Positions 628 through 23,258 of a stretch of 32,000 nucleotides of DNA are shown piece after piece. How positions within the stretch are numbered: the first letter of the stretch is position 1; every line of letters begins with the position of its first letter. The stretch spans positions 1,140,001-1,172,000 of the forward strand of contig CBDCNV010000001.1 in NCBI GenBank assembly GCA_965219535.1. The letters run 5' to 3'. This stretch comes from Opitutales bacterium. GTDB taxonomy: Bacteria; Verrucomicrobiota; Verrucomicrobiia; Opitutales; PNEW01. The notes beneath the pieces are model-generated. The model saw only the letters and a list, made by a program, of their open reading frames with translations. It was not told the origin of the DNA and ran no database searches. The position numbers and the translations under genes were made by a program.

Positions 628-692
628 TGGAGTGACCCCCAAAAATCGTATCATTTACAGAGAGAGGTTATCGGGATAAACAGATAACCTCA

Positions 693-905
693 ATGAAAAG
701 AAAAAGATACACAACAGAACAGATTATAACAATATTGCGGCAAGCCGATACCGGTAAAACGGTACAGGAAATCTGCCGTGGAAACAACCTGAGCGAACAG
801 ACTTTCTATCGCTGGCGTAAAAAATATGGCAATTTAGAACTTGCCGATGCGAAGCGATTTAAAGAGCTGGAAAAAGAATTCACGAGCGCAAGCGAGAAGG
901 CCTGA
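693..905 (+). CDS. IS3-family OrfA (HTH), ending at an in-frame TGA; the same frame stays open to 986
   Basis: The 70-aa product MKRKRYTTEQIITILRQADTGKTVQEICR..QTFYRWRKKY is typical of transposase OrfA. After TGA 903-905 the frame continues HTELKKLLADQMLKNQVMEETLSKKW*, which is the leucine-zipper part. Confidence 0.75.
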   Translation: MKRKRYTTEQIITILRQADTGKTVQEICRGNNLSEQTFYRWRKKYGNLELADAKRFKELEKEFTSASEKA

Positions 906-973
906 CATACCGAGCTGAAGAAGCTGCTCGCAGATCAAATGCTCAAGAATCAGGTAATGGAGGAAACGCTGTC

Positions 974-980
974 AAAAAAA
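974..980 (+). promoter_or_regulatory. A AAA AAA -1 programmed frameshift heptamer of the IS
   Basis: An A7 run is in phase with orfA (tca aaa aaa tgg tga). The orfB frame opens at 980 in the -1 frame, which is the standard IS3 arrangement. Confidence 0.7.
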
Positions 981-1945
981 TGGTGAGCCCAAAGCAGAAG
1001 AAACGAGTAGTAAAAGCTGCGGCTGAGAAAGGGTTGTGCTCGTTGCGGAGGGCTTGTGCTTATCTCAGCCTGAGTTGGTCAACGTTCAGTTACCGGCCCA
1101 AACAGGCCAGTGAGAAAGCTCAGCGGTTGGTCGAGCGGATTGTGAGCTTGTCCTGGAAACATCCCCGCTACGGTTACCGGCGCATCCGTGCCTTGCTGGT
1201 AAAGGAAGGCTGGACAACAAGCAGGAAGTTTGTCCAGGCGGTACGACGTTCAGAAGGGCTGCAGGTAAAGCCCCCGAAAAAGGGCAGACACCGTCAAGGA
1301 GTCTCTACGGGGTCACCTACTAAAGCAAAGGGTCGCAATCACGTTTGGTCCTGGGACTTTGTCCATGATCGTACAGACAACGGCGGTCCATTAAAGATGA
1401 TGACTCTAATCGATGTACCGAGGAGCTGAAAGCGACGACACTCAAGCGAAGCGAAGACATATACGCGTAAATGCCTGGATATCCGGGTCGCTCGTCAACT
1501 CACCTCAACCGATGTCCTCTCTGTGCTTAGCGAGGCCATTGAAGAGGAGGGACCTCCCAGCTATATCCGTAGTGACAACGGCAGTGAGTTCATTGCTCAT
1601 CAAGTGCAGCAGTGGTTGTCCGGTAATAACATAAAGGCGATCTATATCGATCCGGGCAGTCCCTGGCAAAACGGTTTCATCGAGTCGTTTCACAACCGCT
1701 TACGCGATGAGTGTTTGAACCGTGAAGTGTTGCTCAGCGTGGCTGAAGCGCAAGTGGTAATCGAACAATGGCGTCAGACCTATAACCATGAACATCCCCA
1801 CAGTCGTTTAGGCTTCAAAAGCCCACAAGAGTTTGTCAGATTCCTTTCCGATCTTGGCCGCGTTCGGGCTACGCCCTCACTTCGCCAAGATCTCTCATAT
1901 ACATCAATCCTAAAACCATTAACACCCGGTAACTCTCTCACTTAA
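980..1945 (+). pseudogene. IS3-family OrfB (DDE integrase core) interrupted by in-frame TGA at 1427-1429
   Basis: ORFs 980-1429 and 1523-1945 are in the same frame. The reading ..LKMMTLID VPRS* KRRHSSEAK TYTRKCLD..GPPSYIRSDNGSEF..PGSPWQNGFIESFH is collinear with the neighbouring IS paralogue except for a ~13-codon insertion that carries the stop. Confidence 0.75.
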
Positions 1946-1972
1946 ATTGGTACGAAAAACGGGGTCCGATCA

Positions 1973-3057
1973 AGGTTTTGAGCGAAACGTTGTGGAGTAA
2001 TATTGCCGAGGCTGCGGTGGGGTCGAACATGATTGTAAAGCCAGCGCCAATCTTCGATCACCACGCGGGCTTCGGTCAAAGTCCACAGCTGTTCACGATT
2101 TAGACACTCCTCGCGAAAACGGGCATGGAACGATTCGATGTATCCGTTCTGCCAAGGGCTTCCTGGTTCGATATAGAGGGTATTGATTTTCATCGCAGTT
2201 AGCCAAGTTCGCAATTCCTTTTCAATAAACTCGGAACCGTTATCGCTGCGAATATATTTTGGCGGCCCATGAGGGTCGAGCAGTTTTTGCATGACCCCGC
2301 GCACCTTCTGCGCATTGATATGGCGATCGACATGGATCACCCGGCACTCGCGGGTGTACTCGTCAAGGACGGTGAGCATTTTGAGATTCCCACCGCGGAC
2401 CGTCTTATCGTGGATAAAGTCCCAGGTCCAAACATGGTCGGGATGTTCGGCCTTCGTCGGCAGCCCGGTGGAGACACCCCTGCGCCGGCGTCTTGGCTTG
2501 CGTGGGGGAATCGCCAGGCCCAGTTCACGTCGCAGACCTTGCACGAGCCGTTTACCCACCTGCCAGCCTTCGTCCTTCAACAGCTTCGTGATCTTCGGAT
2601 AGCCCCACCTCGCGTATTGCCGTGATAACCGCCTTACTGCCGCCTTCAGTTTCGTTAGCCAGGCATCAGGATACTTCGCCCGATACGCATAGGTGGAGCG
2701 GTGCAGGTGAAAGTATCGGCACGCTCCACGTATCGAACACTGGCCCCGGGCCACAAGTCTCTCTGCCACTTGCCGCTTGTGCCCAGGGCTTACAGTTTTT
2801 TTTCGAGCGTCTCCTGCACAATCTCTATCCCCAGCAGCTTGTCCGCCAGCATCCGCTTTAACCGCGCGTTCTCCTTCAAAGAGTTCCTTCATCCGCTTGG
2901 CCTGGTTGACATCAATCATCCCAAGTTCACGTTTCCAGCGGTGGAAGGTCTGTTCGCTTATGTTGTTCTCGCGGCATACTTCCAGAATCGTTTTCCCTTT
3001 GTCTGCCTGCCGCAGCATCCGTATCTTCTCTTCGGTTGTATATCTTTTGCCTTTCAT
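1973..3057 (-). pseudogene. Fused OrfA-OrfB transposase with an out-of-frame zipper segment and a truncated C-terminus
   Basis: The HTH N-terminus and the DDE part are in one frame. The segment between them reads as nonsense (FEGERAVKADAGGQAAGDRDCAGDARKK). The adjacent frame reads a canonical LKENARLKRMLADKLLGIEIVQETLEKKL* that ends at an A8 slippery run (2796-2803). Confidence 0.65.
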
Positions 3058-3197: not shown

Positions 3198-3208
3198 GAG
3201 TTTATGTT

Positions 3209-3663
3209 GAGGAGTCTAAGGTCGAAGGTCAAAAGTCGAAAGCAGGAAACAAGAAATATTTTACAGGAAGAACGGGAAGGCCGGGGAGAAAGAAGGGGGG
3301 ATAGCCACAAAAGGCACAAAATGAAGATTAGAATATTTATTACATATTAATGGGAAAAAGCGGTAATATTGAACCGCAGAGGCGCAGAGATCGCAGAGAC
3401 AAAGACTGACAAGTGGAGTTGACAATTTACAACTGGGTGGGTGAAACGCGGTGATTGATCTCAATGTCATCCCCCCGCATTTGCGGGTGGGATTGACTAC
3501 GGCTTTCCCTAGCGCTTTTTTTAAATTGTGATTTAAAAAAACGTGTAGGAAACATCCGGCGTCCCGCGGTGGCGGGACTATTGTGATCAATCACCGCATT
3601 TCACCTTAGTTATTCTGGATCTACTATTGCATTCGACTTTAGACATTCGACTTTAGACTCCTC
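3209..3663. repeat. Foldback mosaic element R1 (455 bp) with nested inverted repeats
   Basis: The outer arms are gaggagtctaaggtcgaaggtcaaaagtcgaaag (3209-3242) and tcgactttagacattcgactttagactcctc (3633-3663). An inner 21-bp IR, ggtgaaacgcggtgattgatc (3440-3460) with gatcaatcaccgcatttcacc (3585-3605), has 1 mismatch. GC hairpins lie at 3471-3491 and 3561-3578. Confidence 0.85.
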
Positions 3664-3689
3664 AATTTCCCATCCGCGTTATCAGCGGT

Positions 3690-3905
3690 TTAATTTTCCC
3701 GATCTTCCCGAGCTTCCTGTAAAACCTCTTTCTTCTCTTGCCTGTCGGCCATAGCCTTGGCGACGGCTGGTGCTTTTGGAAGATCTCGCTGCGCTTTGGT
3801 AGTGCCTTTGAAAGATGTCGCCGCTGGCTCGGTAGTGCCTATCCTACCCGTAAAATCCCTCTTTCTTCTCTTGTGCTTTTTGTGCCTCTTGTGGCTATTC
3901 CTCAC
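3690..3905. repeat. Low-complexity mosaic segment R2 (its ORF is spurious)
   Basis: It has internal direct repeats gtaaaa(c)ctctttcttctcttg (3719-3740 and 3850-3873), an rc copy of the CGCCAAGGCTATGGC module (3741-3770), and a gccacaagaggcacaa word shared with 205-220 and 3301-3322. Confidence 0.75.
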
Positions 3906-4198: not shown

Positions 4199-4368
4199 GT
4201 CAAAAGGTCAAAAAGTCAAAATGTATTTGCGTATACGCGAAGATGAGTAAATGCGATAAAGGGTGAATGCGGAATTATACCGAATACAGGATGATCCTCG
4301 CGGTTGTCGATTATTCACATCTTCACATACTCGCTTGTTCCCGTATACCCATTTCCCCATAGACTGAC
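4199..4368. repeat. Foldback mosaic element R3 (degenerate right arm)
   Basis: The left arm is gtcaaaaggtcaaaaagtcaaaatg (4199-4223). The inner module gcgtatacgcgaagatgagtaaatgcgataaagggtgaatgcggaat resembles those of R6 and R14. The right half is decayed (catttccccatagactgac, 4350-4368). Confidence 0.6.
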
Positions 4369-4415
4369 AAATGATTAAGAAATTTCTAAACCAGAAATTT
4401 CTTCTTCATTTGTCA
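4365..4415 (-). terminator. Long hairpin containing the stop codon of the Ldh_2-type gene
   Basis: tgacaaatga (4365-4374) pairs with tcatttgtca (4406-4415), and aagaaatttct (4377-4387) pairs with agaaatttctt (4393-4403). That gives 10+11 bp with a 2x2 internal loop and a 5-nt loop. The stop codon is at 4375-4377. No U-tract follows. Confidence 0.4.
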
Positions 4416-5507: not shown

Positions 5508-5588
5508 AGTCGAAGGTCAAATGTCAAAGGTCAAAAGTAATGTTTTTCAAAAAATCATGCTTTAGACTTTAGACCTTGGACTTTTGAC
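5508..5588. repeat. Foldback element R4 (short form)
   Basis: The left arm is agtcgaaggtcaaatgtcaaaggtcaaaagt (5508-5538) and the right arm is ctttagactttagaccttggacttttgac (5560-5588). Complementarity is about 75 percent in 7-nt register. Confidence 0.75.
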
Positions 5589-5616
5589 GACCAAAATGAG
5601 CTAGCTCATTTTGGTC
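5589..5616 (-). terminator. Perfect 28-bp palindrome centred on the stop codon of the epimerase gene
   Basis: In gaccaaaatgagct|agctcattttggtc the stop codon (cta, rc tag) lies at 5601-5603. The 5' arm in mRNA sense is the last 4 codons of the CDS. Confidence 0.4.
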
Positions 5617-6509
5617 TTGAGCCACCATTGATAGGTCATGGCCAGGCCGTCGTGGATGTTGTAGCGGGGTGTCCAGTCGAGATCGCGACGGGCTTTTTCG
5701 TTGGAGTATACGGAGCTGATTCCCCACCCAAAGGGGAATACGTCAGCCTCGAGTTCATCATAGCGTTTGGGATCGACGTGAATCACTTCCACTTCCTTGT
5801 TCATGACTTTACTCAGGGTTTGCAAATAACCGTTAACGGTTATCATCTCATTCGCACCGATGGTATAGATTTGGCCTGCTGCCTGTTTTTGACTTGGAAC
5901 AGCGGCAAACGCGGCGGCCAGATCATCGACGTGGATAAAGTGGAGGAGCCGTTGACCATCGCCGGGGATAATTAATTTACGTCCGTGAGTGATACGGGCA
6001 AAGAAAGTATGCTCGCGCTGTTTCAAGTTATTGTGCGGACCGTAGACATAGACCAGCCGCAGTGAGGTTGTCGGCAGCCCGAGCTCCGCGTGTACTTTTA
6101 AGAGAAGATCTTCACAGGCGATCTTGTCCCTGGCGTAGTCACTGGCTTCCGGTCTTCTGTCGAGGGCGGAATCTTCAAAGATCGGCCTGATTTCGGAGGG
6201 CGCGTAAACGGAAGTCGAGCTGCAGAAGACATAATTACCGATCTGACCATTGAGAATATTAATAACATCTTCAACGACGTTCGGGGTATAACCCGAAATG
6301 TCATAGACGACATCAAATGATTTACCCTTCAATGCCTTTTCGACCTGATTTCGGTCATCGCGATCGGCGCTGAGACGATTGACTTCATCCGGAAGCTGTG
6401 CCTCGCTCAAACCCCGGTTCAAAATAGTTACCTTATGTCCCTGTTTAATTAAATATTCAACAAGGTGTAACCCAATAAATTGGGTGCCGCCTAATACTAG
6501 TGATTCCAT
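5601..6509 (-). CDS. NAD-dependent epimerase/dehydratase family (extended SDR) protein
   Basis: The N-terminus MESLVLGGTQFIGLHLVEYL carries the Rossmann GxxGxxG motif. I place the start at ATG 6509. The track ORF starts at a TTG (6551) inside repeat arm R5, and those extra 14 aa are repeat-encoded. Confidence 0.8.
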   Translation of the reverse strand: MESLVLGGTQFIGLHLVEYLIKQGHKVTILNRGLSEAQLPDEVNRLSADRDDRNQVEKALKGKSFDVVYDISGYTPNVVEDVINILNGQIGNYVFCSSTSVYAPSEIRPIFEDSALDRRPEASDYARDKIACEDLLLKVHAELGLPTTSLRLVYVYGPHNNLKQREHTFFARITHGRKLIIPGDGQRLLHFIHVDDLAAAFAAVPSQKQAAGQIYTIGANEMITVNGYLQTLSKVMNKEVEVIHVDPKRYDELEADVFPFGWGISSVYSNEKARRDLDWTPRYNIHDGLAMTYQWWLKTKMS

Positions 6510-6537
6510 AAAACGTAACCAGAGGTAACGTTTTATG

Positions 6538-6638
6538 GAGTCGAAAGTCAAAGGTCAAAAGTCGAAGGAAATGATGCTAAAAGCTTTACCACTTTCACAC
6601 AATTCCGCATTCGACCTTTGACTTTCGACCTTCGACTC
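6538..6638. repeat. Foldback element R5 in a divergent intergenic region
   Basis: The left arm is gagtcgaaagtcaaaggtcaaaagtcgaagg (6538-6568) and the right arm is ttcgacctttgactttcgaccttcgactc (6610-6638). Confidence 0.85.
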
Positions 6639-6651: not shown

Positions 6652-7530
6652 ATGATCAAAAGTAAAAACGACTACCCTACGACAGAAGAACTGGTGGAAC
6701 AGGTGAGGGAGGTGGGCTATTGCCTGATTGAAGGTATTATACCTGAAGATAAATTAGAGCCGATTAAAAAGGAAATTTCGGACGCGGCTCATGCAAATTG
6801 CAGCGATTATGCGTCTGAAAACATAACGCACCTGTCCGGGACGATTAATTATACCCAAAGTTTTGCGGAGTATGTCGCACACCCGCGTATCCTGGCACTG
6901 GTGGACACATTTTTCGGCCCTCACGCGCGCGTCTCCTCGACGACGACGACGATCAATGAACCGGGAAATAAGCGCGGCATGTGGCATTCCGACTGGCCAT
7001 TCAACCAGAGGAACGCGGGTCACATTCCGGTACCCTATCCCGACTTGATGGTTCACATCACTTCGATCTGGATGATGTCCGCCTTCACTAAAGAGAATGG
7101 AGGGACTTTGATTCGGCCGAAAAGCCATAAGCTTAATTACAATCCGAGTGTGGACTATCCGGAAAATAAAGCAAAGACATCGGATAAAAAAGCGATGGCG
7201 GAAGGGTGGACGACGGTAGCCTGCGATCCTTTAGATGATGAAATAAATGCCACCGGTCCTGCCGGCAGTGTGCTCTTTTTTGACAGCCGCTTATGGCACG
7301 CCACGGCGCCCAACACTTCCACCGATCCTCGCGTCGCGCTGATTGTGCGTTACGCCCCCTGGTGGATAAATTTAAAATCCTGGAGACCCGGTTCGATTGA
7401 TAGAAAAATAATTTCCGAAGAGCCCGGCATTTTTGAAAACGTGCTCGCCCCACTACCCGTAGCCGTCTACGAAAAATTGCCCGAAGTAACGAAGCCACTG
7501 TTCAGGCATTGGGTTGAGGAAAACTCGTAG
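6652..7530 (+). CDS. Phytanoyl-CoA dioxygenase (PhyH) family Fe(II)/2-oxoglutarate oxygenase
   Basis: The 292-aa product has WHSDWPF (HxD-type metal site) and LWHATAPN (distal His), which are typical of PhyH. Confidence 0.75.
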   Translation: MIKSKNDYPTTEELVEQVREVGYCLIEGIIPEDKLEPIKKEISDAAHANCSDYASENITHLSGTINYTQSFAEYVAHPRILALVDTFFGPHARVSSTTTTINEPGNKRGMWHSDWPFNQRNAGHIPVPYPDLMVHITSIWMMSAFTKENGGTLIRPKSHKLNYNPSVDYPENKAKTSDKKAMAEGWTTVACDPLDDEINATGPAGSVLFFDSRLWHATAPNTSTDPRVALIVRYAPWWINLKSWRPGSIDRKIISEEPGIFENVLAPLPVAVYEKLPEVTKPLFRHWVEENS

Positions 7531-7538
7531 TTTTCCTC
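7516..7538 (+). terminator. 9-bp hairpin with the stop codon in the loop
   Basis: In gaggaaaac-tcgta-gttttcctc, TAG lies at 7528-7530. The 5' arm is the last codons (VEEN) of the CDS. Confidence 0.4.
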
Positions 7539-7723
7539 GTCGAATGTCTAAGGTCCAAAGTGAAAACGCGTGAAAGCGATAAAGCGTGAATGCGGATTAA
7601 TTCAGGGTGCAGGATCCAAGGAAATCTTCTTAATTTCCACATTTCCGCATCATCGCATATACTCATTCTCGCATATACGCATTTTCTTATTCCACCTTTG
7701 ACATTAGACCTTAGACTTTAGAC
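7539..7723. repeat. Foldback mosaic element R6 (full nested form)
   Basis: The heptamer arm gtcgaatgtctaaggtccaaagtg is at 7539-7562. The octamer array gtgaaaac|gcgtgaaa|gcgataaa|gcgtgaat|gcggatta is at 7560-7600. The loop contains ggtgcaggatccaaggaaatc. The octamer array cgcatcat|cgcatata|ctcattct|cgcatata|cgcatttt is at 7647-7686. The heptamer arm ccacctttgacattagaccttagactttagac is at 7692-7723. Confidence 0.9.
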
Positions 7724-7733
7724 AAATGAACCC

Positions 7734-8726
7734 ATGGGTTCATTAGTCGAAAAGCCTATCGGGCGAAGTGGTTTGAGGATGAGTGCGATTGCGCTGGGGG
7801 CGGGGACTTACGGGCGTGAGATCGACGAGGAGGCGTCCTGGAAGGTACTCGATTATGCGACGGAAAAAGGAATAACTTTTCACGACAACGCGGAGATGTA
7901 TGGCGGGGGCAATACCTACGAAAAACGCAAAGCGGATTATGGCACTACGGAAGTGCTGGAGGCATCGACCGAGATGTATTCGGGGGAGAAAATATTCTCA
8001 AGATGGATGAAAAATCGCGGTTGCCGTGATGATGTTGTCATCTGCACAAAAGTCAGCAGTGGGAACAGCGCGGAAAATATTAAGAAGCAGATGGCGGCCA
8101 GCCTCGAGCGGCTGGAAGTCGACTGTGTGGATGTTTACATGTTACATTCTCCCGATGACAGCGTGCCGATTGAAGAAACGATGGATGCGCTCAACGAGGA
8201 AGTAAAAGCCGGGCATACGAAGGTGATTGGGTGCAGCAATTTTTCGGGCGCGCAATTACGGGACGCGCTCGCGGTCAGCGCGAAGAAAGGTTACGCCCGT
8301 TTTGAAATTACCGAGCCCCGCTATAACCTCGCGGATAGAAAATCGGAGACGGATGATTTTCCCATTTGCCGGGAGGAAGAGATAACGGTTATGCCCTACA
8401 GTCCATTAGCCGCGGGATTTCTCACCGGTAAATATACACCGGACCGTTCACAGTTTCCCAAGGGCGCGCGCTTTGATCTTTCACCCGGCCACGCCGACAT
8501 TTACTTCAACGATCATAATTTTCGGGTGGTCGAACACTTGCGCAAAAAAGCCGAGGAGATGGGACTACCCATGGTGCGTCTCGCTATGGCTTGGGTGATG
8601 ACTAATCCCGATGTCACCGCCACCCTCATCGGCGCCCGAACAACCGCGCATATCGACAACGCTCTCCTCGCCGCAGAAATGGGACTCGATCCCGCATTAC
8701 GCAAAGAAATGAGTAGATGGGAATAG
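7734..8726 (+). CDS. Aldo/keto reductase family oxidoreductase
   Basis: The 330-aa product has IGRSGLRMSAIALG, DNAEMYG, DVYMLHSPD and GCSNF blocks typical of AKRs. Confidence 0.85.
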   Translation: MGSLVEKPIGRSGLRMSAIALGAGTYGREIDEEASWKVLDYATEKGITFHDNAEMYGGGNTYEKRKADYGTTEVLEASTEMYSGEKIFSRWMKNRGCRDDVVICTKVSSGNSAENIKKQMAASLERLEVDCVDVYMLHSPDDSVPIEETMDALNEEVKAGHTKVIGCSNFSGAQLRDALAVSAKKGYARFEITEPRYNLADRKSETDDFPICREEEITVMPYSPLAAGFLTGKYTPDRSQFPKGARFDLSPGHADIYFNDHNFRVVEHLRKKAEEMGLPMVRLAMAWVMTNPDVTATLIGARTTAHIDNALLAAEMGLDPALRKEMSRWE

Positions 8727-9303
8727 GAGTCGAAAGTCGAAGGTCTAAGGTCGAATGCGGAATCTAATAAATCTGAGAAAGATTAGGAATTAGTTTCTAT
8801 TTTGGTATCTGATTTATCTTGTTTAATACGGCGCATAAGTGCAGCGATGCCTTTCGAGATATTTCTACTAGCTTCTCTTAAGTTTACTGCATCGTTTTCT
8901 ACTATATAATTAAGATCTTCAGCAATATAGAGCATATTTCTTAATTCTCCACAGGAGCCTTTTGCGATGCTAAGAAAACGATAGAACTCAGCGTCTCCTT
9001 TTCTTTCATAACCCTCCGAAATATTATTCATTACTGATACACTTGATCTTTGGATTTGATCTTTAAAGCCATAGTCTTTTGACGCCGGTGTTGACCCACC
9101 AAACGATTTATAAATAGTCGTGACTAAAGTTCTTGCTTCTTGCCAGATTCTCAGATCTTCGAAGGATTTTACTGGGTTCATAATATGATAAATGTTGATG
9201 TTGAATTAATGAGATCTATATAGAATTTAATTCGGTAAAAAATACACTAAACTTAATAGTGATTATTTCGCCTTCGACTTTAGACCTTCGACTTTCGACA
9301 TTC
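8727..9303. repeat. Foldback element R7 carrying a cargo gene
   Basis: The left arm is gagtcgaaagtcgaaggtctaaggtcgaatgcggaat (8727-8763) and the right arm is ttcgccttcgactttagaccttcgactttcgacattc (9267-9303). A ~27-bp core is complementary with 1 mismatch. The arms enclose ORF 8783-9181. Confidence 0.9.
8783..9181 (-). CDS. Four-helix-bundle protein (23S rRNA intervening-sequence protein family)
   Basis: The 132-aa product has FEDLRIWQEA, SVMNNISEGYERKGDAEFYRFLSIAKGSCGELRNMLYIAEDL, the signature layout of this family. Confidence 0.85.
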   Translation of the reverse strand: MNPVKSFEDLRIWQEARTLVTTIYKSFGGSTPASKDYGFKDQIQRSSVSVMNNISEGYERKGDAEFYRFLSIAKGSCGELRNMLYIAEDLNYIVENDAVNLREASRNISKGIAALMRRIKQDKSDTKIETNS

Positions 9304-9325
9304 AAATCGCTCACGCGATTTGAAT
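9300..9325 (-). terminator. 11-bp perfect hairpin with the stop codon in the loop
   Basis: In attcaaatcgc-tcac-gcgatttgaat the stop (tca, rc tga) lies at 9311-9313. The arm at 9315-9325 is the last codons (IQIA) of the ADH gene. Confidence 0.4.
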
Positions 9326-10297
9326 TACAGCGCTCCCATTAAACTTTCCATCGCGTAGAGCATTGAGTGCATCATTGGTTTTATACAGGGGAAAAACGGA
9401 TACTTCCGTTTGAACGGGAATGCTTGGAGCCAGTTTTAAAAAATCTTCTCCATCCTTGCGCGTGAGATTGGCAACTGACCGGATCTGCCGTTCTTCCCAT
9501 AAATCTTTATAGGGAAAGGAGGGGATGTCGCTCATATGGATACCTGCACAAACGACAATCCCGCCTTTGCCCACCGCTTTCAGTGCAGCCGGTACTAAAG
9601 CGCCGATCGGAGCAAAAATGATGGCGGCGTCGAGTTTGCACGGTGCTTTATCTTCTGAACACCCCGCCCAGACGGCACCGAGTTTTCGAGCAAAGTCCTG
9701 GCCGGTGCTATCACCCCGTCGCGTAAACGCATAAATTTCTTTTCCCTCAAATACCGCGACTTGTGCGATAATATGCGCTGCTGCACCAAAGCCGTAAAAA
9801 CCAATTTTTTTTGCATTACCTGTCATTCGGTAGGCGCGATAGCCAATTAATCCGGCACAGAGCAGGGGGGCAACCTGCAAGTCGGAATAGTCATCAGCTA
9901 GGGGAAAACAAAAATCTTCTCTTGCCACGGTGTATTCAGCGTAACCGCCATCCTTTTGATAACCGGTAAAGGTCGGGTCATCGCAGAGGTTTTCACGGCC
10001 CTCGTCACAATAAGGGCATGACCCACAAGTTCCACCCAGCCATGGCACGCCTACACGCGTTCCCTTATCAAATCGTGTTGCGCTATCTCCCCGTTCTTCT
10101 ACCGTGCCGACAATCTGATGGCCCAGCACTAAAGGAAGTTTTGGTTCCATTAATTCTCCATCAACAATATGCAAATCAGTCCGGCACACCCCGCAGACCC
10201 TTACTTTGAGCAGCACTTCCTTGTCACGGGGTCTAGGGACGGGCAGCTCTATTAATTTCAATGGACTTCCCAATTTTTGTAGGGACATCGCTTGCAT
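9311..10297 (-). CDS. Zinc-dependent alcohol dehydrogenase (MDR) family protein
   Basis: The 328-aa product has GVCRTDLHIVDGE, GHQIVGTV, the structural-zinc Cys cluster CGSCPYCDEGRENLC, and a GFGAAAH Rossmann motif. Confidence 0.85.
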   Translation of the reverse strand: MQAMSLQKLGSPLKLIELPVPRPRDKEVLLKVRVCGVCRTDLHIVDGELMEPKLPLVLGHQIVGTVEERGDSATRFDKGTRVGVPWLGGTCGSCPYCDEGRENLCDDPTFTGYQKDGGYAEYTVAREDFCFPLADDYSDLQVAPLLCAGLIGYRAYRMTGNAKKIGFYGFGAAAHIIAQVAVFEGKEIYAFTRRGDSTGQDFARKLGAVWAGCSEDKAPCKLDAAIIFAPIGALVPAALKAVGKGGIVVCAGIHMSDIPSFPYKDLWEERQIRSVANLTRKDGEDFLKLAPSIPVQTEVSVFPLYKTNDALNALRDGKFNGSAVIQIA

Positions 10298-10316
10298 GAT
10301 TTGAATTGTAAGAGCA

Positions 10317-10591
10317 GAAGGTCGAAAGTCAAAAGTCGAAAGGGTTGAAAACCGGTAGATTTTCAGTGTTAGGTGTTAAGTAAGAATGGGGGTAAATGCG
10401 GCATGAGTGTATGTCATTATGCGTGTATGTGGATGGTCACTTGGGTCTTATTCGGCTATGGCATTAGCGACGGATGATTGTAGCTGAGTAGATGTAATTA
10501 TCCTTAAATAATCCGCATTATCGCATAATCGCATTCACGCGTATTCATAATCTCGCATTCTACCTTTGACATTAGACCTTAGACTTTAGAC
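10317..10591. repeat. Foldback mosaic element R8 (full nested form)
   Basis: The left arm is gaaggtcgaaagtcaaaagtcgaaaggg (10317-10344). The right octamer array is cgcattat|cgcataat|cgcattca|cgcgtatt|cataatct|cgcattct. The right heptamer arm is tacctttgacattagaccttagactttagac (10561-10591). It contains a degenerate rc copy of the GGCTATGGC module. Confidence 0.85.
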
Positions 10592-10601: not shown

Positions 10602-11726
10602 ATGGATTCTATTGTCGAAAAGCCTCTATTAATCATCGATGGTCACTTGGATATGGGGTTTAATGCGCTTTTTAATCAACGTGATCTTACACAGTCGATC
10701 CAGGTTTTGCGTGAGCGCGAGGACTCTCTAAAGAACAAACTGGGACCCTATGAAACCGATCCGGGAACGGTTACGGTTTCACTTCCGGAATTAAGGCGAG
10801 GTTGTGTTGGCATCATGCTGGCTACGATAATGGTACGGGTCCAAGTGCCGTGGCCAGGAAGACCGAATTGCCATAATGCGGTGCGCACGCAGCCGACAGC
10901 CTATGCGCGCGGCCAATCCCATCTCGCTTATTACCAGGCTCTGGAAAAGGAAGGAGAAGTATCCTGGATTAAAACACTCGAAGACTTGGACTCGAGTGTA
11001 GCCGCCTGGGAAAACCCCACCCCGGATACTCCGGTCGGTCTAATCCTTTCGATGGAAAGCGCCGATCCCATCCTCGGGCCCGACCAGGTAGCTCAATGGT
11101 GGGAGGATGGACTGCGCGCGGTCGGCATTACTCATTTCGGAGCGAATTCTTACGGGCACGGGACCGGTACGCCGGGAGGACTTTACCCAACCGCATACCC
11201 TCTTTTGGATGCCTTTGCGGATACCAATATGATCATCGATCTCACGCATGCCGCTGATACCGCGTTCTGGCAAATTCTCGATTATTGGGAGGGACCGGTA
11301 CACGCCAGCCATTGTAACTGTCGCGCGCTCGTGCCCGGTCAACGCCATCTCAGTGACGAGATGATAAAAGCGCTCTGCGAACGCGGTGGTGTCATGGGCA
11401 TGGTATTCGCTGAGTCCATGTTGAGCCCCCAGTGGGATTGGGATGATCCGAGTACGCATTACACCAAAGCCACGCGACCGATGAAAGCGGTCGTGGAACA
11501 TGTCGACCACATCTGTCAACTCACGGGTAATACGGATCATGTAGCGATCGGCACGGATCTCGACGGTGGATTTGGGCGAGAAATTGCACCTATTGACATG
11601 GATACGGTCAACGACCTGCAAAAATTTTTAAACATACTACGTGATCGGGGATACAGCGAAGAGGATGTAGAAAAAATAGCCCATGGAAATTTGTTACAAC
11701 TCTTCCGCAACGCATGGAGCAAATAA
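10602..11726 (+). CDS. Peptidase M19 (membrane/renal dipeptidase) family protein, paralogue 1
   Basis: The 374-aa product has IDGHLD (HxD), SMESAD, IIDLTHAAD, ASHCNCRAL and IGTDLDGGFG blocks collinear with M19 metal-ligand positions. Confidence 0.8.
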   Translation: MDSIVEKPLLIIDGHLDMGFNALFNQRDLTQSIQVLREREDSLKNKLGPYETDPGTVTVSLPELRRGCVGIMLATIMVRVQVPWPGRPNCHNAVRTQPTAYARGQSHLAYYQALEKEGEVSWIKTLEDLDSSVAAWENPTPDTPVGLILSMESADPILGPDQVAQWWEDGLRAVGITHFGANSYGHGTGTPGGLYPTAYPLLDAFADTNMIIDLTHAADTAFWQILDYWEGPVHASHCNCRALVPGQRHLSDEMIKALCERGGVMGMVFAESMLSPQWDWDDPSTHYTKATRPMKAVVEHVDHICQLTGNTDHVAIGTDLDGGFGREIAPIDMDTVNDLQKFLNILRDRGYSEEDVEKIAHGNLLQLFRNAWSK

Positions 11727-11728
11727 TA

Positions 11729-12829
11729 ATGGCCGATAAACCCATGCTCATTGTAGACAGCCACCTCGACCTGGCCTTTAACGCGATCCAGATTAATCGG
11801 GACATCACACAACAGGCGGCCGTTGTTCGCACCCATGATCATCAATCCACTCTCTATCGTTTTGGAAGTTCGACTGTTACTTTTCCCGAGCTGAGAAAAG
11901 GAAAAGTAGGAATCGTGTTCGGGACGGTTATGTCTCGAATCGATCCCACCGATTGGCTGGGGCGCACCGGGGGGATGTATTCACAAGCGCAATGTTACGG
12001 AGTAGGTCATGGACATTACTCTTTTTACAAGGCGATGGAACGGGAGGGGATACTTAAATTTATCCAAAATGCCGAAGATCTCGATGCGATGGTCGAGGCC
12101 TGGGAAAATCCCTCGGCTGATACTCCTTTTGGTTTGGTTCTCGCGATGGAAAGCGCGGATCTTATCTTAGACCCTGACGAGGTCTCCAAATGGTACGACC
12201 GCGGATTACGTATCGTCAGTATTTCTCATTACGGCAACAACACCTATGCCCAAGGTACTGATACCGAGGGCGGCCTCTTACCCAAGGGGAAGCCTCTTCT
12301 AGACGCATTGAAAGCAAGTGGTATCATTGTAGATATGACTCATACAACAGATCAGAGTTTTTGGGAAATATTAGACTATTATGATGGGCCGGTTGCCGCT
12401 TCCCATCACAATTGCCGGGCCCTCGTCCCGGGTCAGCGACAGTTAACCGATGATATGATTAAGGCAATTGTCGAACGCAATGGCGTGATTGGAGCCGCAT
12501 TTGATGTATGGATGCTCGATCCCGATTGGACAAGGGGTGTTCGCGGGTGTGATCAAACGACGAAAGCTACGCTTGAAACGGTAGTCGATCATATCGACCA
12601 CATTGTCCAACTAGTGGGCAGCGCTAATCACTGTGGAATCGGTACCGATCTCGACGGGGGTTACGGGCAGGAGCAATCGCCCCGCGATCTCAATACGATT
12701 GCCGACCTGCAAAAACTCCCCAGCATTTTTAAAAAGCGCGGCTATAATGAAGAAGATATATCCAAATTTCTTTCAAAAAATTGGATTAATTTTTTGAAAG
12801 AAACTTGGAGTCAAAAGTCGAAGGTCTAA
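11729..12829 (+). CDS. Peptidase M19 family protein, paralogue 2
   Basis: It is collinear with paralogue 1 (roughly half of positions identical by eye). I prefer ATG 11729 (MADKPMLIVDSHLD), which aligns with KPLLIIDGHLD, over the track start at 11714. The last codons, QKSKV*, are encoded by repeat arm R9. Confidence 0.8.
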   Translation: MADKPMLIVDSHLDLAFNAIQINRDITQQAAVVRTHDHQSTLYRFGSSTVTFPELRKGKVGIVFGTVMSRIDPTDWLGRTGGMYSQAQCYGVGHGHYSFYKAMEREGILKFIQNAEDLDAMVEAWENPSADTPFGLVLAMESADLILDPDEVSKWYDRGLRIVSISHYGNNTYAQGTDTEGGLLPKGKPLLDALKASGIIVDMTHTTDQSFWEILDYYDGPVAASHHNCRALVPGQRQLTDDMIKAIVERNGVIGAAFDVWMLDPDWTRGVRGCDQTTKATLETVVDHIDHIVQLVGSANHCGIGTDLDGGYGQEQSPRDLNTIADLQKLPSIFKKRGYNEEDISKFLSKNWINFLKETWSQKSKV

Positions 12830-13002
12830 AGTCGAAAGTGGAAACGTGTGAATGCGGATTATTTCAAGGTGCAGGTTCCAAGGAAATCATGGTAGTTACC
12901 ACATTTACGCATCAACGCTTACACGCATGTTCGCGTAAGAGGATGTCGGGCTCTACCCTCGGTACGCATTACCTTTGACTTTCGACCTTCGACCTTCGAC
13001 TC
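12808..13002. repeat. Foldback mosaic element R9
   Basis: The left arm is gagtcaaaagtcgaaggtctaaagtcgaaagtg (12808-12840). The loop sequence ggtgcaggttccaaggaaatc matches R6 at 20 of 21 positions. The module gaggatgtcgggctctaccctcggtacgc is at 12939-12967. The right arm is acctttgactttcgaccttcgaccttcgactc (12971-13002). Confidence 0.9.
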
Positions 13003-13792: not shown

Positions 13793-13843
13793 TACTGGAG
13801 AGCCTAAGGTCCCGCCGTCGCTAAGGGCTATGGCGTGGCAAGC

Positions 13844-14079
13844 GGAAGGTCTAAAGTCGAAAGCGGAATACTAAGGAGCTGAAAGTCGAAGGTTGATGAA
13901 AATTATTAAGCACTAATTTTTAAGTGAAGAGTGTTATTGGCCATCTTCGAATTTCGACTCTTTGCTTTTTATTAATTCTCTTACTTGAAGCTTAACGATT
14001 AACACCTGAAATCTTTGGCTTAACACTAAATTTACACAGTTTTTCCAGCCTTCGACCTTTGACTTTCGACCTTCGACTC
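13844..14079. repeat. Composite foldback element R10
   Basis: Left-type arrays are ggaaggtctaaagtcgaaagcgg (13844-13866) and aggagctgaaagtcgaaggttg (13874-13895). An internal right-type arm is cttcgaatttcgactcttt (13945-13963). GTGTTAAG-type words lie at 13906-13940 and 13990-14033. The terminal right arm is ccttcgacctttgactttcgaccttcgactc (14049-14079). Confidence 0.8.
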
Positions 14080-14095: not shown

Positions 14096-15505
14096 ATGGA
14101 TGGTGTGAGTATCAAAGGAGCTGAAATATTAATCGTTGAAGACGAGCCACTCTTGCGAAAACGATTAGCGGGTTTCCTTGAAAATGAGGGCGCCGGAGTC
14201 ACGGCAACTGAAAATATTGAAGGTGCCACTAATTGTTTAAACGACCTGCATTTTGATTACGCATTAATTGATATAAATTTACCCGATGGTTCGGGAATTG
14301 ATCTTTTACGAAATAAAAAGGTATCTGCAAATACGAGCGTCGTCATTATGACTGCTGAAGGCGGTGTGGAAAGTGCGGTTGAAGCCATGCGCCTCGGTGC
14401 CTCAGATTATTTGAGTAAGCCATTTGATCTCGAAGAATTACCGTTAATTTTCAAGCGCTGCGCGCTGGTCCGTCATACTGAGCGTTTACAGGAACATCAA
14501 CGTGAAGAGGGCTCTCGAGTTGAAGAGCAATTCTATTTTGGAAAATCCCTGAACACGGTTGAAAAGCAACTTGAGCAAATAATAAATGCCGACCGCCGAT
14601 TGGGAGAGGGGCTGCCACCTGTCCTGATCGAGGGCGAGACCGGTAGTGGGAAAACAGCCATCGCTCGCTGGTTGCATCACCGCGGACCTAGAGCTGCTCA
14701 ATCTCTGGTCGAGATTAACGGTTCGACATTACCAGAAAATCTAGCTGAATCAGAACTGTTCGGTCATGAGCGCGGAGCTTTCACCGATGCTAAAAATGCC
14801 CGAATCGGCCTCTTTGAAGCTGCAGATGGGGGCACGCTGTTTCTCGATGAACTCCCTAGTTTATCGTTAGCTGTACAGGCCAAAATATTGACTGCGATTG
14901 AAGATCGCAAAATCCGCAGGGTGGGGGGGAATAAAGAAATCCCCGTCGATGTACGTTTGATCACGGCTACGAATAAAGATCTGCAAGAACTTGTCACCAC
15001 CGGTGCCTTTCGCGAGGATCTGTATCACCGGCTCGACCTGATGCGCATCAATATTCCACCCTTACGCGAACGTGGTAAAGATATTATTAATTTGGCTTCT
15101 CATTTGCTCGAAGATCTATCTCACCGTTACCGCGTGAAAAAAGCTGAAATTTCTGATCTCGGAATTAAAAGACTGCTCGCTTATGCTTGGCCGGGTAACG
15201 TGCGCGAGTTGGCCCATGAGTTGGAACGTTCTATAGTTATGTTAGAAAATGATAGCCTGGATTTCGATCGCCTTGATAAAGCATCGACAATTAACAAAAG
15301 TCACGATGAGGCCATACTGGACGCAACTGATTGGTTTAATGAAAGCTTTGTTTTTCCGGAAGGTGAATTCAAGCTTGAGGAAGCCATTTCACGAATTATT
15401 CAACAGGCGCTTAAACAATCGAATAACAATGTATCCGCGGCGGCTCGCCTACTTGGCGTGCCCCGTGATTACATCCGTTATCGCTTGTCGGGGCAGAAGA
15501 AATAG
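14096..15505 (+). CDS. Sigma54-dependent response regulator (NtrC/ZraR class: REC + AAA+ + Fis-type HTH)
   Basis: The REC domain is ILIVEDE..LIDINLPDGSG. Walker A is GETGSGKT. The GAFTGA-type loop is ERGAFTDA, followed by GGTLFLDE. The C-terminal HTH is NVSAAARLLGVPRDYIRYRL. Confidence 0.9.
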   Translation: MDGVSIKGAEILIVEDEPLLRKRLAGFLENEGAGVTATENIEGATNCLNDLHFDYALIDINLPDGSGIDLLRNKKVSANTSVVIMTAEGGVESAVEAMRLGASDYLSKPFDLEELPLIFKRCALVRHTERLQEHQREEGSRVEEQFYFGKSLNTVEKQLEQIINADRRLGEGLPPVLIEGETGSGKTAIARWLHHRGPRAAQSLVEINGSTLPENLAESELFGHERGAFTDAKNARIGLFEAADGGTLFLDELPSLSLAVQAKILTAIEDRKIRRVGGNKEIPVDVRLITATNKDLQELVTTGAFREDLYHRLDLMRINIPPLRERGKDIINLASHLLEDLSHRYRVKKAEISDLGIKRLLAYAWPGNVRELAHELERSIVMLENDSLDFDRLDKASTINKSHDEAILDATDWFNESFVFPEGEFKLEEAISRIIQQALKQSNNNVSAAARLLGVPRDYIRYRLSGQKK

Positions 15506-17780: not shown

Positions 17781-19211
17781 TTGAGTATTCAATCAGAGCG
17801 TCGCCCATTTCCAGGAATTCCGATTTTAGTGGTTATGATAACAACCCTTATCTTCGGAAGCTTGATTTTTATTATGGGCCTAAAGTCCCGTCGGGAGATT
17901 CGGAGCCAGATTATAAATCGTGATGCGGAAGTTTTATATTCTTTAACCCTGATGGAGTTCAATCGTGCCGAGGAAGAGGCATTAGCCAATCCCTGGTTAA
18001 TGGATATCGGTACCGATCTATTAACAGTTGTCCTTAAAACTTCGGAAATGAAAAACGTTATTGCAGTCAGGATTTTTAATCATGACGGGCAGTTTATAGA
18101 TGCCTTACCGCTTGAATTTCTAAAAGGTGAATTGGATGGAGATGAAATACTAAAAGCCAGGCAACTGCAGCCGATTAGTGAATATCATCCGGGGGTTCGC
18201 CTCAGCAACTATTTTGTCAACCCTTTCGGGATGGAAGATGATTCCTCCTTTCCTCTATTGGAAGTCATTTTACCCCTGCACAAGGCGGACTCAGAGGAAA
18301 TATTGGGGATTGCTCAGTACCTGATCGACGGGGCTAGTATCGAAACTGATTTTGCCGCCCTCGACCGCAATCTTTTTATCCAGGCGGGAATTGCCTTCGG
18401 AAGCGGGACGCTCATCATCGCCTTGATATTGATTTTATCTTTTCGGCGACTTCAACGTTACAGCGAATTGCTTGAAGACCGAAGCGAACGCCTTTTGGAC
18501 GCTAACCATGAGCTCGCTCTGGCAGCTAAATCCTCCGCTATTGGAGCAGTAACTTCCCATCTCATTCACGGGCTAAAAAATCCATTGTCCGGCTTACAGG
18601 ATTTCGTAAAGGGTAGGGATGGTGAAAGGCGACAGGATTCAGATGAGGATTGGCAGACCGCAGCAGAGTCTGCACGAAGGATGCAAATTATGATTCAAGA
18701 AATTACTTCCGTTCTTCAAGAGCAAGAAACCGCCCAGAATTACGATTTTACCCTCCAGGAAATTAGAGATATCGTAGTGAGCAAAGTCGAAGCACTTGCC
18801 GAAAAATCAGGTATTACCTTTGATGCCGGAGAAACACCCATAAGCAATCTCGATAGCCGTCGGGGTAATCTTCTTTTACTCGTCTTGATGAATCTCATAC
18901 AAAATGCAATCGAAGCGACACCTTCAGGTAATAAAGTAGCTCTCGAATTTCACGATTGTGACAACCGCGTAGAGATTCACGTTATCGATGAAGGACCTGG
19001 CCTTCCATCAACTATTCAGGACAATTTATTTTCACCCTGTCAAAGTAGTAAAGAGAATGGTAGTGGCATCGGTCTCGCCATCAGTTACCAACTGGCGAAG
19101 CACATCGATGCAGAAATTACACTTCATAAAACTGGATCTGATGGTACTTGCTTTATTGTCAGTATTGCGATTTCAACTGCTGCAGAGGAAAATAAAAATA
19201 ATATATCTTAG
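17781..19211 (+). CDS. Sensor histidine kinase (two TM segments, periplasmic domain, HisKA + HATPase)
   Basis: It has a TTG start. TM helices lie at about aa 12-33 and 200-221. The H-box is SHLIHGLKNPLSGL, the N-box is NLIQNAIEA, G1 is DEGPGL and G2 is GSGIGLAIS. Confidence 0.85.
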   Translation: MSIQSERRPFPGIPILVVMITTLIFGSLIFIMGLKSRREIRSQIINRDAEVLYSLTLMEFNRAEEEALANPWLMDIGTDLLTVVLKTSEMKNVIAVRIFNHDGQFIDALPLEFLKGELDGDEILKARQLQPISEYHPGVRLSNYFVNPFGMEDDSSFPLLEVILPLHKADSEEILGIAQYLIDGASIETDFAALDRNLFIQAGIAFGSGTLIIALILILSFRRLQRYSELLEDRSERLLDANHELALAAKSSAIGAVTSHLIHGLKNPLSGLQDFVKGRDGERRQDSDEDWQTAAESARRMQIMIQEITSVLQEQETAQNYDFTLQEIRDIVVSKVEALAEKSGITFDAGETPISNLDSRRGNLLLLVLMNLIQNAIEATPSGNKVALEFHDCDNRVEIHVIDEGPGLPSTIQDNLFSPCQSSKENGSGIGLAISYQLAKHIDAEITLHKTGSDGTCFIVSIAISTAAEENKNNIS

Positions 19212-22265: not shown

Positions 22266-22292
22266 TGATCGGACCCCGTTTTTCGTACCAAT

Positions 22293-23258
22293 TTAAGTGA
22301 GAGAGTTACCGGGTGTTAATGGTTTTAGGATTGATGTATATGAGAGATCTTGGCGAAGTGAGGGCGTAGCCCGAACGCGGCCAAGATCGGAAAGGAATCT
22401 GACAAACTCTTGTGGGCTTTTGAAGCCTAAACGACTGTGGGGATGTTCATGGTTATAGGTCTGACGCCATTGTTCGATTACCACTTGCGCTTCAGCCACG
22501 CTGAGTAACACTTCACGGTTCAAACACTCATCGCGTAAGCGGTTGTGAAACGACTCGATGAAACCGTTTTGCCAGGGACTGCCCGGATCGATATAGATCG
22601 CCTTTATGTTATTACCGGACAACCACTGCTGCACTTGATGAGCAATGAACTCACTGCCGTTGTCACTACGGATATAGCTGGGAGGTCCCTCCTCTTCAAT
22701 GGCCTCGCTAAGCACAGAGAGGACATCGGTTGAGGTGAGTTGACGAGCGACCCGGATATCCAGGCATTTACGCGTATATGTCTTCGCTTCGCTTGAGTGT
22801 CGTCGCTTTCAGCTCCTCGGTACATCGATTAGAGTCATCATCTTTAATGGACCGCCGTTGTCTGTACGATCATGGACAAAGTCCCAGGACCAAACGTGAT
22901 TGCGACCCTTTGCTTTAGTAGGTGACCCCGTAGAGACTCCTTGACGGTGTCTGCCCTTTTTCGGGGGCTTTACCTGCAGCCCTTCTGAACGTCGTACCGC
23001 CTGGACAAACTTCCTGCTTGTTGTCCAGCCTTCCTTTACCAGCAAGGCACGGATGCGCCGGTAACCGTAGCGGGGATGTTTCCAGGACAAGCTCACAATC
23101 CGCTCGACCAACCGCTGAGCTTTCTCACTGGCCTGTTTGGGCCGGTAACTGAACGTTGACCAACTCAGGCTGAGATAAGCACAAGCCCTCCGCAACGAGC
23201 ACAACCCTTTCTCAGCCGCAGCTTTTACTACTCGTTTCTTCTGCTTTGGGCTCACCAT
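22293..23258 (-). pseudogene. OrfB of IS copy 2, with the same in-frame TGA (22809-22811)
   Basis: Track ORFs 22293-22715 and 22809-23258 are identical to those of copy 1. Confidence 0.75.

Follow-up and report, generated by a model that had tools for sequence, protein, structure and literature searches.

A 185-nt intergenic hairpin of concentric 7- and 8-nt word arrays in an Opitutales bacterium, and its possible kinship with S23p/IVP intervening-sequence cassettes

What kind of element is an intergenic hairpin whose arms consist of two concentric arrays of short words, 7 nt long on the outside and 8 nt long on the inside? The hairpin in question, R6, occupies positions 7539-7723 of a 32,000-nt stretch of an Opitutales bacterium genome (contig CBDCNV010000001.1, positions 1,140,001 to 1,172,000; hereafter the window, with coordinates counted from its first letter). 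A sequence-only reading had described the nested arrays and several copies of them, and hinted that they arose by slippage or templated word addition, or are recognized by a repeat-reading protein. We found that R6 belongs to a populous family of intergenic elements, one of which carries an S23p/IVP gene between the same outer arms. The interpretation that we favor, and to which we give about an even chance, is that R6 is a gene-less member of a palindromic, probably selfish, intergenic element family akin to the S23p/IVP "intervening sequence" (IVS) cassettes.

R6 sits in a 203-nt gap between a PhyH-family gene (6652-7530, plus strand) and an aldo/keto reductase gene (7734-8726, plus strand), and inspection of the sequence bears out both its hairpin potential and its described anatomy. 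Outer arms of three or four 7-nt words (GTCNAAD and its complement) enclose inner arms of four or five 8-nt words (GCGNNAAW and CGCATNNN), which in turn enclose a conserved core. On the plus strand, the outer-left arm (7539-7566) reads GTCGAAT, GTCTAAG, and GTCCAAA (7539-7559), then a degenerate GTGAAAA; the inner-left arm (7560-7599) consists of the octamers gtgaaaac, gcgtgaaa, gcgataaa, gcgtgaat, and gcggatta. The core or loop (7600-7645) contains the 21-mer GGTGCAGGATCCAAGGAAATC (7606-7626) and an apical mini-hairpin (GGAAAT-CTTCTTA-ATTTCC, 7620-7638). The inner-right arm (7646-7693) has the CGCATNNN-type octamers cgcatcat, cgcatata, ctcattct, cgcatata, and cgcatttt (7646-7685), then a degenerate cttattcc; the outer-right arm (7696-7723) is CTTTGAC, ATTAGAC, CTTAGAC, and TTTAGAC, a 28-mer of which an identical copy ends the element R8 (10564-10591). 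Self-match is maximal at period 7 in the outer arms (0.71 left, 0.83 right) and at period 8 in the inner arms (0.56 left and right), and Tandem Repeats Finder (TRF) concurs, confirming the nested architecture. Over 56 nt the arms are 71% complementary, which makes a long stem possible, and the fold z-scores are -4.4 for the plus-strand RNA, -5.4 for the minus-strand RNA, and -4.4 for DNA; none of 200 shuffles folded equally well.

R6 has open reading frames (ORFs) of 43-54 amino acids only, all spurious, and none in the loop encodes an S23p/IVP protein (PF05635); we therefore rejected a small protein encoded in R6. It lies outside rRNA, and so is not an insertion in helix 25 or 45 of the 23S rRNA. 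No Rfam family matches R6 at the gathering score; at E <= 1 only chance matches to microRNA hairpins appeared, all outside R6. With no Rfam match and no tRNAs, a known RNA or tRNA-derived element was rejected as well, as was a sigma-54 promoter in the conserved core, where the spacing, judged by eye, does not fit. The words GTCNAAD and GCGNNAAW have no G tracts of the sort found in G-rich, G-quadruplex-forming units.

The window contains at least 11 R6-like elements, and all eight intergenic gaps between 4.2 and 14.1 kb are occupied. Paired heptamer arrays, (GTCNAAD)x3-4 followed by (HTTNGAC)x4, flank elements of 80-571 nt, with starts and ends at 3214/3658, 5509/5588, 6540/6636, 7539/7723, 8729/9299, 10321/10591, 12810/13000, and 13849/14077; period-8 (GTCAAAAR) versions are at 4199, 27289/27520, and 28270/28555. 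A four-heptamer pattern matches 22 times in the window (0.00 expected), and the spaced CGCAT pattern CGCATNNNCGCAT, with <= 2 mismatches, 67 times (28.6 +/- 5.2 expected). Among 56 heptamer words, drawn from TRF-delimited arrays except for the R6 outer-left arm, which was delimited by eye, positions 1, 2, 5, and 6 are constant in all 56 and position 3 is C in 54, while position 4 can be any base and position 7 A, G, or T. Random decay of a simple repeat would not be expected to leave such a pattern, an invariant skeleton with free positions 4 and 7. Arms in the window cluster tightly near four words, and discrete 28-nt arm types recur at many sites.

R9 (12808-13002) is the closest paralogue of R6. 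As had been claimed, the two share the 21-mer of the core at 20 of 21 positions (7606-7626 versus 12868-12888). In alignment columns 72-165 (the core plus the innermost octamer words of both arms), identity is 95-97% among R9-type copies and ~80% between these and R6. Given the number of elements in the window, the shared core, and the copies in relatives described below, we agree that these are homologous copies rather than independent low-complexity runs. Ordinary decay of MITEs (miniature transposable elements with inverted repeats), doubted from the start, also fits poorly: the heptamer skeleton is essentially invariant, and inspection of 35 element boundaries revealed no target-site duplication, but palindromes in the flanks instead.

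The connection to IVSs comes from R7 (8729-9299, minus strand), a sister element ~1 kb from R6 with the same outer arms (35 nt, 91% complementary) around a 132-amino-acid S23p/IVP gene (8783-9181, minus strand). Its product is a four-helix bundle that matches PF05635 (23S_rRNA_IVP) and TIGR02436 ("four helix bundle protein") and is homologous (E = 1e-13) to the five-chain structure PDB 2GSC of XCC0516, a homopentameric toroid (PMC4990558).

Word-built arms are not peculiar to R7. We aligned 28 homologues of the R7 ORF and fetched 80 metagenome loci encoding relatives at 48-59% identity; one S23p/IVP homologue, at ~50% identity, carries the name "Verrucomicrobia." A flanking inverted repeat scoring >= 36 was found at 35 of 59 S23p/IVP loci, compared to 0 of 87 shifted control positions (p = 3e-19), and arm periods were 7, 8, or 9 only. 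By TRF, tandem arrays of period 6-9 are present in 82% of upstream flanks (22% of controls) and 88% of downstream flanks (26% of controls), with a median of 4.4-4.8 copies per array versus 2.2-2.55 in controls. The words are lineage specific (GTCGAAR, GGTCGAAG, AGTCTGTAA/AGTCAAA, AAGTTTATA/AGTAGAA, GTGAAAGA, and GACAACAGAC), and the purine-rich arm is always upstream (5') in the sense of the S23p/IVP gene. This gene is co-oriented with its upstream neighbor at 57 of 65 loci and with its downstream neighbor at 48 of 57, a pattern compatible with reliance on read-through transcription from the host. At 8 of 35 loci, the same lineage-specific word forms additional arm-like arrays beyond the cassette, and at a minimum of three of them (L128, L133, and L162) these arrays make up gene-less hairpins. 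Word arms also occur in the named isolates Riemerella, Nostoc, and Picosynechococcus, in the last between cmr2 and cmr3, a cassette position noted previously (PMC3936711); the true 23S rRNA IVS of Azospirillum has GACRGAD heptamers. S23p/IVP cassettes are common outside rRNA (PMC3936711), and the loci surveyed here agree. Arrays of (GTCNAAN)x4 turned up in many phyla when reference genomes were scanned with this pattern, without any window relative among the hits; at 120 such loci, where the partner arrays were unselected, 21 pairs are convergent and 1 is divergent.

R6 resembles the 23S rRNA IVSs with S23p/IVP genes (PF05635, TIGR02436; Coxiella burnetii, Leptospira, Xanthomonas XCC0516) in having terminal inverted repeats and a long stem around a loop. 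Like that of R6, the IVS stem can be built of tandem heptamers variable in copy number (GACAGAT in Coxiella, PMC4990558; GACRGAD in Azospirillum), and its ~28 nt correspond to four words; moreover, R6's sister R7 carries the gene of the IVS family. In Coxiella, the IVS is a selfish element in 23S rRNA whose 5' end has three or four tandem GACAGAT heptamers, depending on the strain, and whose terminal stem, 28 bp long, RNase III cleaves where the first repeat begins (PMC4990558). The rRNA IVSs are regarded as selfish and as tolerated because RNase III cuts the stem; for R6, we can only infer such cleavage. R6 differs from these IVSs in having no ORF, in lying between protein-coding genes rather than in rRNA, in having a second, 8-nt-period array inside the first, and in arms that pair poorly at variable positions. 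The ORF-less IVSs of Salmonella and other bacteria (83-99 nt, 23S rRNA; PMC2672173) are, like R6, short gene-less hairpins of IVS type; compared by description, they differ in being known only within rRNA helices and in having no reported word periodicity.

Intergenic tandem heptamers with a free fourth position, as seen here, are also known from Xanthomonas (GGGNATC) and Nostoc (GGGGAYT) (Rehm et al. 2015, PMC4692102). Xanthomonas has 70-75 convergent inverted heptamer pairs per genome (PMC4692102), and arrays of this type vary in length and sequence between close relatives while the site is kept, the same behavior that we saw for the window elements. Unlike the words here, theirs are G-rich and read as G-quadruplex formers, and they have no nested second period; no connection to S23p/IVP was drawn (PMC4692102), though XCC0516 comes from the same species. 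Considering these arrays and the Coxiella heptamers, it was an overstatement to call the hairpin very unusual. Cyanobacterial short tandemly repeated repetitive (STRR) heptamers were reportedly described by Mazel et al. in 1990. Pneumococcal BOX elements are modular boxA-boxB(n)-boxC MITEs; they share with R6 the modularity, variable internal tandem units, hairpin potential, and intergenic location, but their units are ~45 nt long (versus 7-8 nt) and not concentric.

We compared orthologous regions of four relatives (L123, L204, L205, and L208), whose genes or gene products are ~90-96% identical to those of the window. An element is present at the R6-equivalent site in every close relative, but its content differs. 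L123 has one heptamer more on the left (4, versus 3 in the window) and one fewer on the right (3 versus 4), and its right inner arm is of the R9/R14 type; L208 has period-8 outer arms on both sides; L204 combines a period-8 left arm with a period-7 right arm and a much enlarged interior. No element is found at this site in L209, whose reductase is 78% identical. At the R9 site, the octamer array on the left is 2-3 words long in the window and 5-6 words long in L208, and L123 has an entirely different hairpin of GTGTTAGG/TTTTAGG words. An R9-like copy at the R4 site of L208 is 96.8% identical to window R9, compared to 95.7% for the true orthologue; an inner module nearly identical to that of R14 lies at the R7/R8 site of L208 (10996-11240) between different outer arms; and R7 is absent in L205 and L208. 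Thus, judging from the orthologous differences and the copies at other sites, arrays evolve in whole-word steps, and arms, inner modules, and cores move between sites by exchange or copying. The whole-word gains and losses are in keeping with the earlier hint at slippage.

One could read R6 as a structured noncoding RNA whose long stem is kept by base-pairing selection, and its strong fold z-scores point that way; we nevertheless consider this extremely improbable. Across 23 arm pairs, the match rate of paired words at positions 4 and 7 is 0.625, compared to 0.607 when word order is shuffled (p = 0.17). In three of these 23 pairs the two arms differ in period (8 nt versus 7 nt), as they do in two further pairs whose 8-nt arm has just two words. 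Of 12 elements lying between co-oriented genes, only 4 are more stable as the sense strand, and no strand is consistently favored. RNAalifold, applied to six R6/R9-type copies, yielded a weak consensus (-17.8 kcal/mol) with an unfavorable covariation term (+1.45), and no Rfam family matches. Pair counting in the six-copy alignment found 90.7% of cells paired and 7 pairs with both partners altered, a result that 2 of 500 shuffles surpassed, but the copies are closely related, the structure was derived from these same sequences, and a single copy, whose arms differ, accounts for most of the double changes. We also rejected concordance of arm type (7/7 or 8/8) as evidence of pairing: stratified by genome, 3 discordant pairs were counted versus ~4.8 expected (11 elements of L204 and L208, hand arithmetic). 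Because covariation is lacking, mixed-period arms exist, and neither strand is preferred, selection for an RNA stem is not supported, and the covariation check proposed in the sequence-only reading turns against its structural reading. The hairpin potential of R6 arises instead because the word skeletons are generically complementary, and not because base pairs are maintained. R6 might also be a purely mutational by-product, its heptamer and octamer repeats grown by slippage and mirrored by template switching, free of recognition or function. Word number is indeed polymorphic between orthologues, and heptamer repeats are overrepresented in bacteria, with slippage proposed as the cause (PMC4692102). 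This account is very improbable, however, since it does not lead one to expect variation confined to positions 4 and 7 of a nearly invariant five-position skeleton, arms that stay close to four words, discrete 28-nt arm types at many sites, strict polarity, or a cross-phylum association with one gene family.

Mobile hairpins of another kind are a further, unlikely, explanation. Repetitive extragenic palindromic (REP) sequences, their inverted doublets (REPINs), and the associated tyrosine transposases (RAYTs) (Bertels & Rainey 2011, PMC3116915; Di Nocera 2013, PMC3733652) provide a model of abundant, extragenic, noncoding two-unit inverted hairpins without target-site duplication, as here. R6 would then be non-autonomous, resembling a REPIN or MITE, and an unlinked transposase (RAYT-type HUH or DDE) would move it; its arrays would be multi-site terminal inverted repeats for this enzyme, and the S23p/IVP genes would be cargo or independent insertions. 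The lack of target-site duplications on flank inspection is as seen with HUH-type elements, the fixed polarity of the ends and the absence of arm covariation fit independent binding sites at each end, and copies at nonorthologous sites are highly identical. REP units, however, are single 20-40-nt imperfect palindromes with a GTAG or CGTC tag (PMC3733652), whereas R6 arms are untagged word arrays and the element ends read GGAGTC...GACTCY. No RAYT was seen in the ~130 kb read of this lineage or among 150 array neighbors elsewhere, and neither a RAYT nor another transposase is bracketed by arrays in the window or in related loci totaling ~100 kb; IS3-family copies, present in the window and L204, are not enclosed by arrays either. 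The near-universal association of S23p/IVP genes with word arrays would, moreover, be left as coincidence. Quite improbable, too, is that R6 is a cis-acting intergenic module used by the host (to process or stabilize mRNA, to insulate, as a promoter or operator, or to start translation) and kept at gene boundaries. In a variant of this proposal, a global regulator that binds heptads might use them as operators, as the omega repressor of pSM19035 does (7-bp heptads on DNA). Elements do occupy the same sites in every close relative. The distance from array end to start codon is 10-19 nt, and that from most stop codons to the array start is 2-9 nt; a palindrome gives the start codon and first ~8 codons of two unrelated genes (below). 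R5b fills nearly the whole gap between divergent genes, so that their promoters must overlap it, and the word YTTTGAC includes TTGAC. On the other hand, sequence at orthologous sites is replaced rather than conserved, inner modules are found in both orientations relative to flanking genes, and L209 has no element. Neither terminator-like sites nor sigma-70-like promoters are enriched (14 promoters versus 16.3 expected); lacking such enrichment, arrays of sigma-70 promoters (TTGAC inside YTTTGAC) were rejected, and one good match upstream of the alcohol dehydrogenase (ADH) gene is an isolated case.

If R6 is instead kin to the S23p/IVP cassettes, it would be derived from them or be their non-autonomous partner. 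By analogy with rRNA IVSs, its transcribed, imperfect ~45-bp hairpin may serve as an RNase III substrate, and cleavage would make insertion between genes harmless. The two concentric periods could be two slippage-prone word domains of one arm, the inner of which expanded; this is the simplest account because R7 has GTC words followed by a single GCGGAAT, the word that also closes the left arm in R4, R6, R9, R10, and R14. Alternatively, concentric arrays might originate by nested insertion, of which the 33-nt and ~27-nt inserts described below are smaller-scale cases. Word-by-word recognition by a protein would best explain the five-base skeleton with two free positions and the typical 4-5 words, and is plausible: the fixed skeleton, the tolerance of 7-9-nt spacing, the ~4-5 words per arm, and the strict polarity all fit it. 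Proteins that read tandem short words include TRAP (11 GAG/UAG triplets, RNA), HutP (UAG every 7 nt), and the omega repressor; these are oligomers that take one word per subunit and tolerate variable spacers, and the word pattern here (five positions fixed, two free, 7-9-nt spacing) is alike, by analogy only. The obvious candidate reader would be the homopentameric ring of S23p/IVP, a plausible "repeat-reading" protein of the kind hinted at earlier. Avd, an S23p/IVP-related protein, partners with nucleic acid in diversity-generating retroelements (DGRs). A much broader proposal, which we regard as quite improbable, is that S23p/IVP cassettes (including the classical 23S rRNA IVSs) and their gene-less derivatives form one widespread, unrecognized class of mobile palindromes, with 4-5 words of 7-9 nt read one per subunit by the S23p/IVP pentamer; in this lineage they would have colonized nearly every intergenic gap and would now supply gene boundaries, start codons, and first codons of host genes.

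Several observations weigh against kinship with the cassettes or against a pentameric reader. The R6 core has no detectable similarity to the R7 interior, and the link between R6 and S23p/IVP consists of shared arms and co-occurrence; hairpins outnumber S23p/IVP genes in the window by about ten to one. The R7 protein is nearly neutral by count (~20 K/R versus 18 D/E), and we know of no demonstration of nucleic-acid binding in the S23p/IVP family outside the Avd proteins of DGRs. Arms of unequal period, with no detectable selection on their pairing, fit poorly with a required RNase III stem. The cross-phylum list of arrays was selected by the pattern GTCNAAN x4 and cannot by itself show that the skeleton is special; that argument is carried by the unselected partner arms and the S23p/IVP-anchored loci. 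The 150 genes adjoining arrays in other genomes and phyla are ordinary housekeeping genes with no mobilizing enzyme enriched among them, and we rejected such enrichment. Finally, S23p is probably not expressed in Coxiella (PMC4990558).

Parts of this picture are already known: IVSs with S23p ORFs, the Coxiella IVS heptamers, the inverted heptamer arrays of Xanthomonas, and REPIN-type hairpins. In the literature we found no description of a general word-built-arm rule for S23p/IVP cassettes, of gene-less derivatives that saturate intergenic DNA, or of a two-period arm. To our knowledge, IVSs and the S23p or "four helix bundle" family have gone without a function or transposition mechanism for ~30 years, though the genes are spread over many phyla and are frequently multicopy. 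Tying a gene-less intergenic hairpin family to S23p/IVP cassettes would make this question experimentally approachable. Word-built arms (7-9 nt, ~4-5 copies, fixed polarity, five fixed and two free positions) are, we propose, a general hallmark of the cassettes, and their words suggest a concrete candidate ligand for the pentameric protein as well as a plausible common origin for overrepresented bacterial heptamer repeats such as GGGNATC in Xanthomonas. In the genome studied here, such elements lie at almost every gene boundary examined, some apparently co-opted as start codons. Were R6 merely a decaying selfish hairpin, its value would be more modest: the elements would be a major source of intergenic turnover and of assembly and annotation artifacts in this lineage.

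The other elements vary around the R6 plan, which had been attributed also to R8, R9, R14, and, in decayed form, R3 (plus strand in each case below). R9 follows it, with fewer octamers on the left and, at 12939-12967, a nested insert of ~27 nt, and so does R8 (10321-10591), which has an extra left-hand module and a right end identical to that of R6. R14 (27289-27520) is related, but its outer words have period 8 (GTCAAAAR), so that it runs from 8 to 8. R3 (3207-3665) conforms only loosely: its heptamer arms (38 nt, 89% complementary) surround a complex interior with about two octamer words only (inner repeat 3440-3465/3580-3605). R4 (4199-4370), a decayed copy absent from the earlier list, has a period-8 outer-left arm and octamer inner arms and has lost its right outer arm. 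R5a (5509-5588) and R5b (6538-6638, between divergent genes) are simple hairpins of 80 and 101 nt with four heptamers per arm; R5a has no full inner octamer array, and R5b keeps a remnant of the right-hand one. In the heptamer-armed R10 (13849-14077), the left array is broken by a 33-nt nested insert (13817-13849). Integron attC-like sites, suggested by genes bracketed between inverted arrays, were rejected because the words lack the GTTRRRY core, no integrase lies close by, and the bracketed genes are housekeeping genes of full length that face either way.

Small palindromes mark the edges of many elements. A hairpin with a perfect 10-bp stem (GAGGAAAACT-CGT-AGTTTTCCTC, 7516-7538, plus strand) abuts the left end of R6 and contains the PhyH stop codon (TAG, 7528-7530); both of its halves change together in orthologues. 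On the other side, a 36-nt palindrome (7717-7752, plus strand; 18-nt arms, 89% complementary) is centered on the start codon of the aldo/keto reductase gene (ATG, 7734) and pairs the last R6 word, TTTAGAC, with GTCGAAA in codons 5-6. Start or stop codons of neighboring genes lie in near-perfect 14-36-nt palindromes just outside the arrays at these two sites and at 5589-5616, 9300-9325, 6499-6530, 12761-12809, and 4365-4415. The noncoding half is the reverse complement of the first or last codons (e.g., AATGAACCCATGGGTTCATT and AAAATGAG-CTAG-CTCATTTT), and orthologues alter both halves jointly. Perfect stems of >= 7 bp were found at 19 of 70 element flanks, compared to 2.2% of random windows (p = 1e-14); genes without arrays have no such boundary palindromes, which may be the footprint of an insertion mechanism or a selected RNA hairpin.

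The unrelated genes downstream of R6 (7734-7757) and R8 (10602-10625) open with nearly the same 24 nt, ATGG(G/A)TTC..GTCGAAAAGCCT, encoding MGSLVEKP and MDSIVEKP. This common start includes a heptamer word; the L208 dipeptidase gene (11249) lacks it and starts MGTLIIDG. From this, the elements appear to supply the start codon and first (~8) codons of host genes. At the other end of a gene, the reading frame of the second M19 dipeptidase extends into the R9 heptamer array (12810-12829), where its stop codon lies (TAA, 12827-12829); a perfect hairpin of 22 bp (12761-12809) also codes for the final ~22 codons.

Gene content between elements also differs among the relatives. L123 has lost the ADH-like gene (9311-10297) apart from 38 nt at its 3' end (compared over 9349-10359), and L205 and L208 have neither this gene nor the S23p/IVP cassette (compared with 8729-10359); these differences are bounded by elements. 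L204 has two matches to the Acido-Lenti-1 RNA (RF01687, 42 bits, above the gathering threshold) at 14532-14578 and 19022-19068, one of which adjoins an IS3 transposase gene; they hint at a host lineage in Lentisphaerae or Acidobacteria and possibly in the PVC group. In the window, IS3-family transposase genes (691-3057) follow a truncated GxxExxY/PDDEXK_3 gene (TIGR04256, 327-635), which matches the 116-position profile only as far as position 94; another copy of the insertion sequence lies at 22266-23616.

Smaller repeats are nested within the elements. The 33-nt insert of R10 (CCGCCGTCGCTAAGGGCTATGGCGTGGCAAGCG) has no counterpart in L123 and has related copies at 170-260, near the GxxExxY gene, and at 3742-3770, in R3; it looks like a very small mobile repeat. 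A ~27-nt mini-element (GAGGATGTCGGRCT...CCTCGGTAC) occurs at 12939-12967 (R9), 27464-27490 (R14), and, inverted, ~28449-28471; it is nested in the octamer arms of R9, R14, the R6 copy of L123, and other copies, and is absent from the L208 orthologue of R9. A further arm type, with GTGTTAGG/TTTTAGG words and the complement CCTAAAAC/TTAACAC, is found at 10350-10385 of the window and at several sites in L123, L204, and L205. R15 (28270-28555) contains (CCCTGAA)x9.3 at 28383-28447 and (AGTGAAC)x4.7 at 28295-28327 between period-8 GTCAAAAG and CTTTTGAC arms. Another word family of like design forms a hexamer-array hairpin at 25353-25443, (TCTTCG)x5 versus (GACGAA)x5 (26 nt, 96% complementary), with a third GACGAA array 0.8 kb away (26264-26295).

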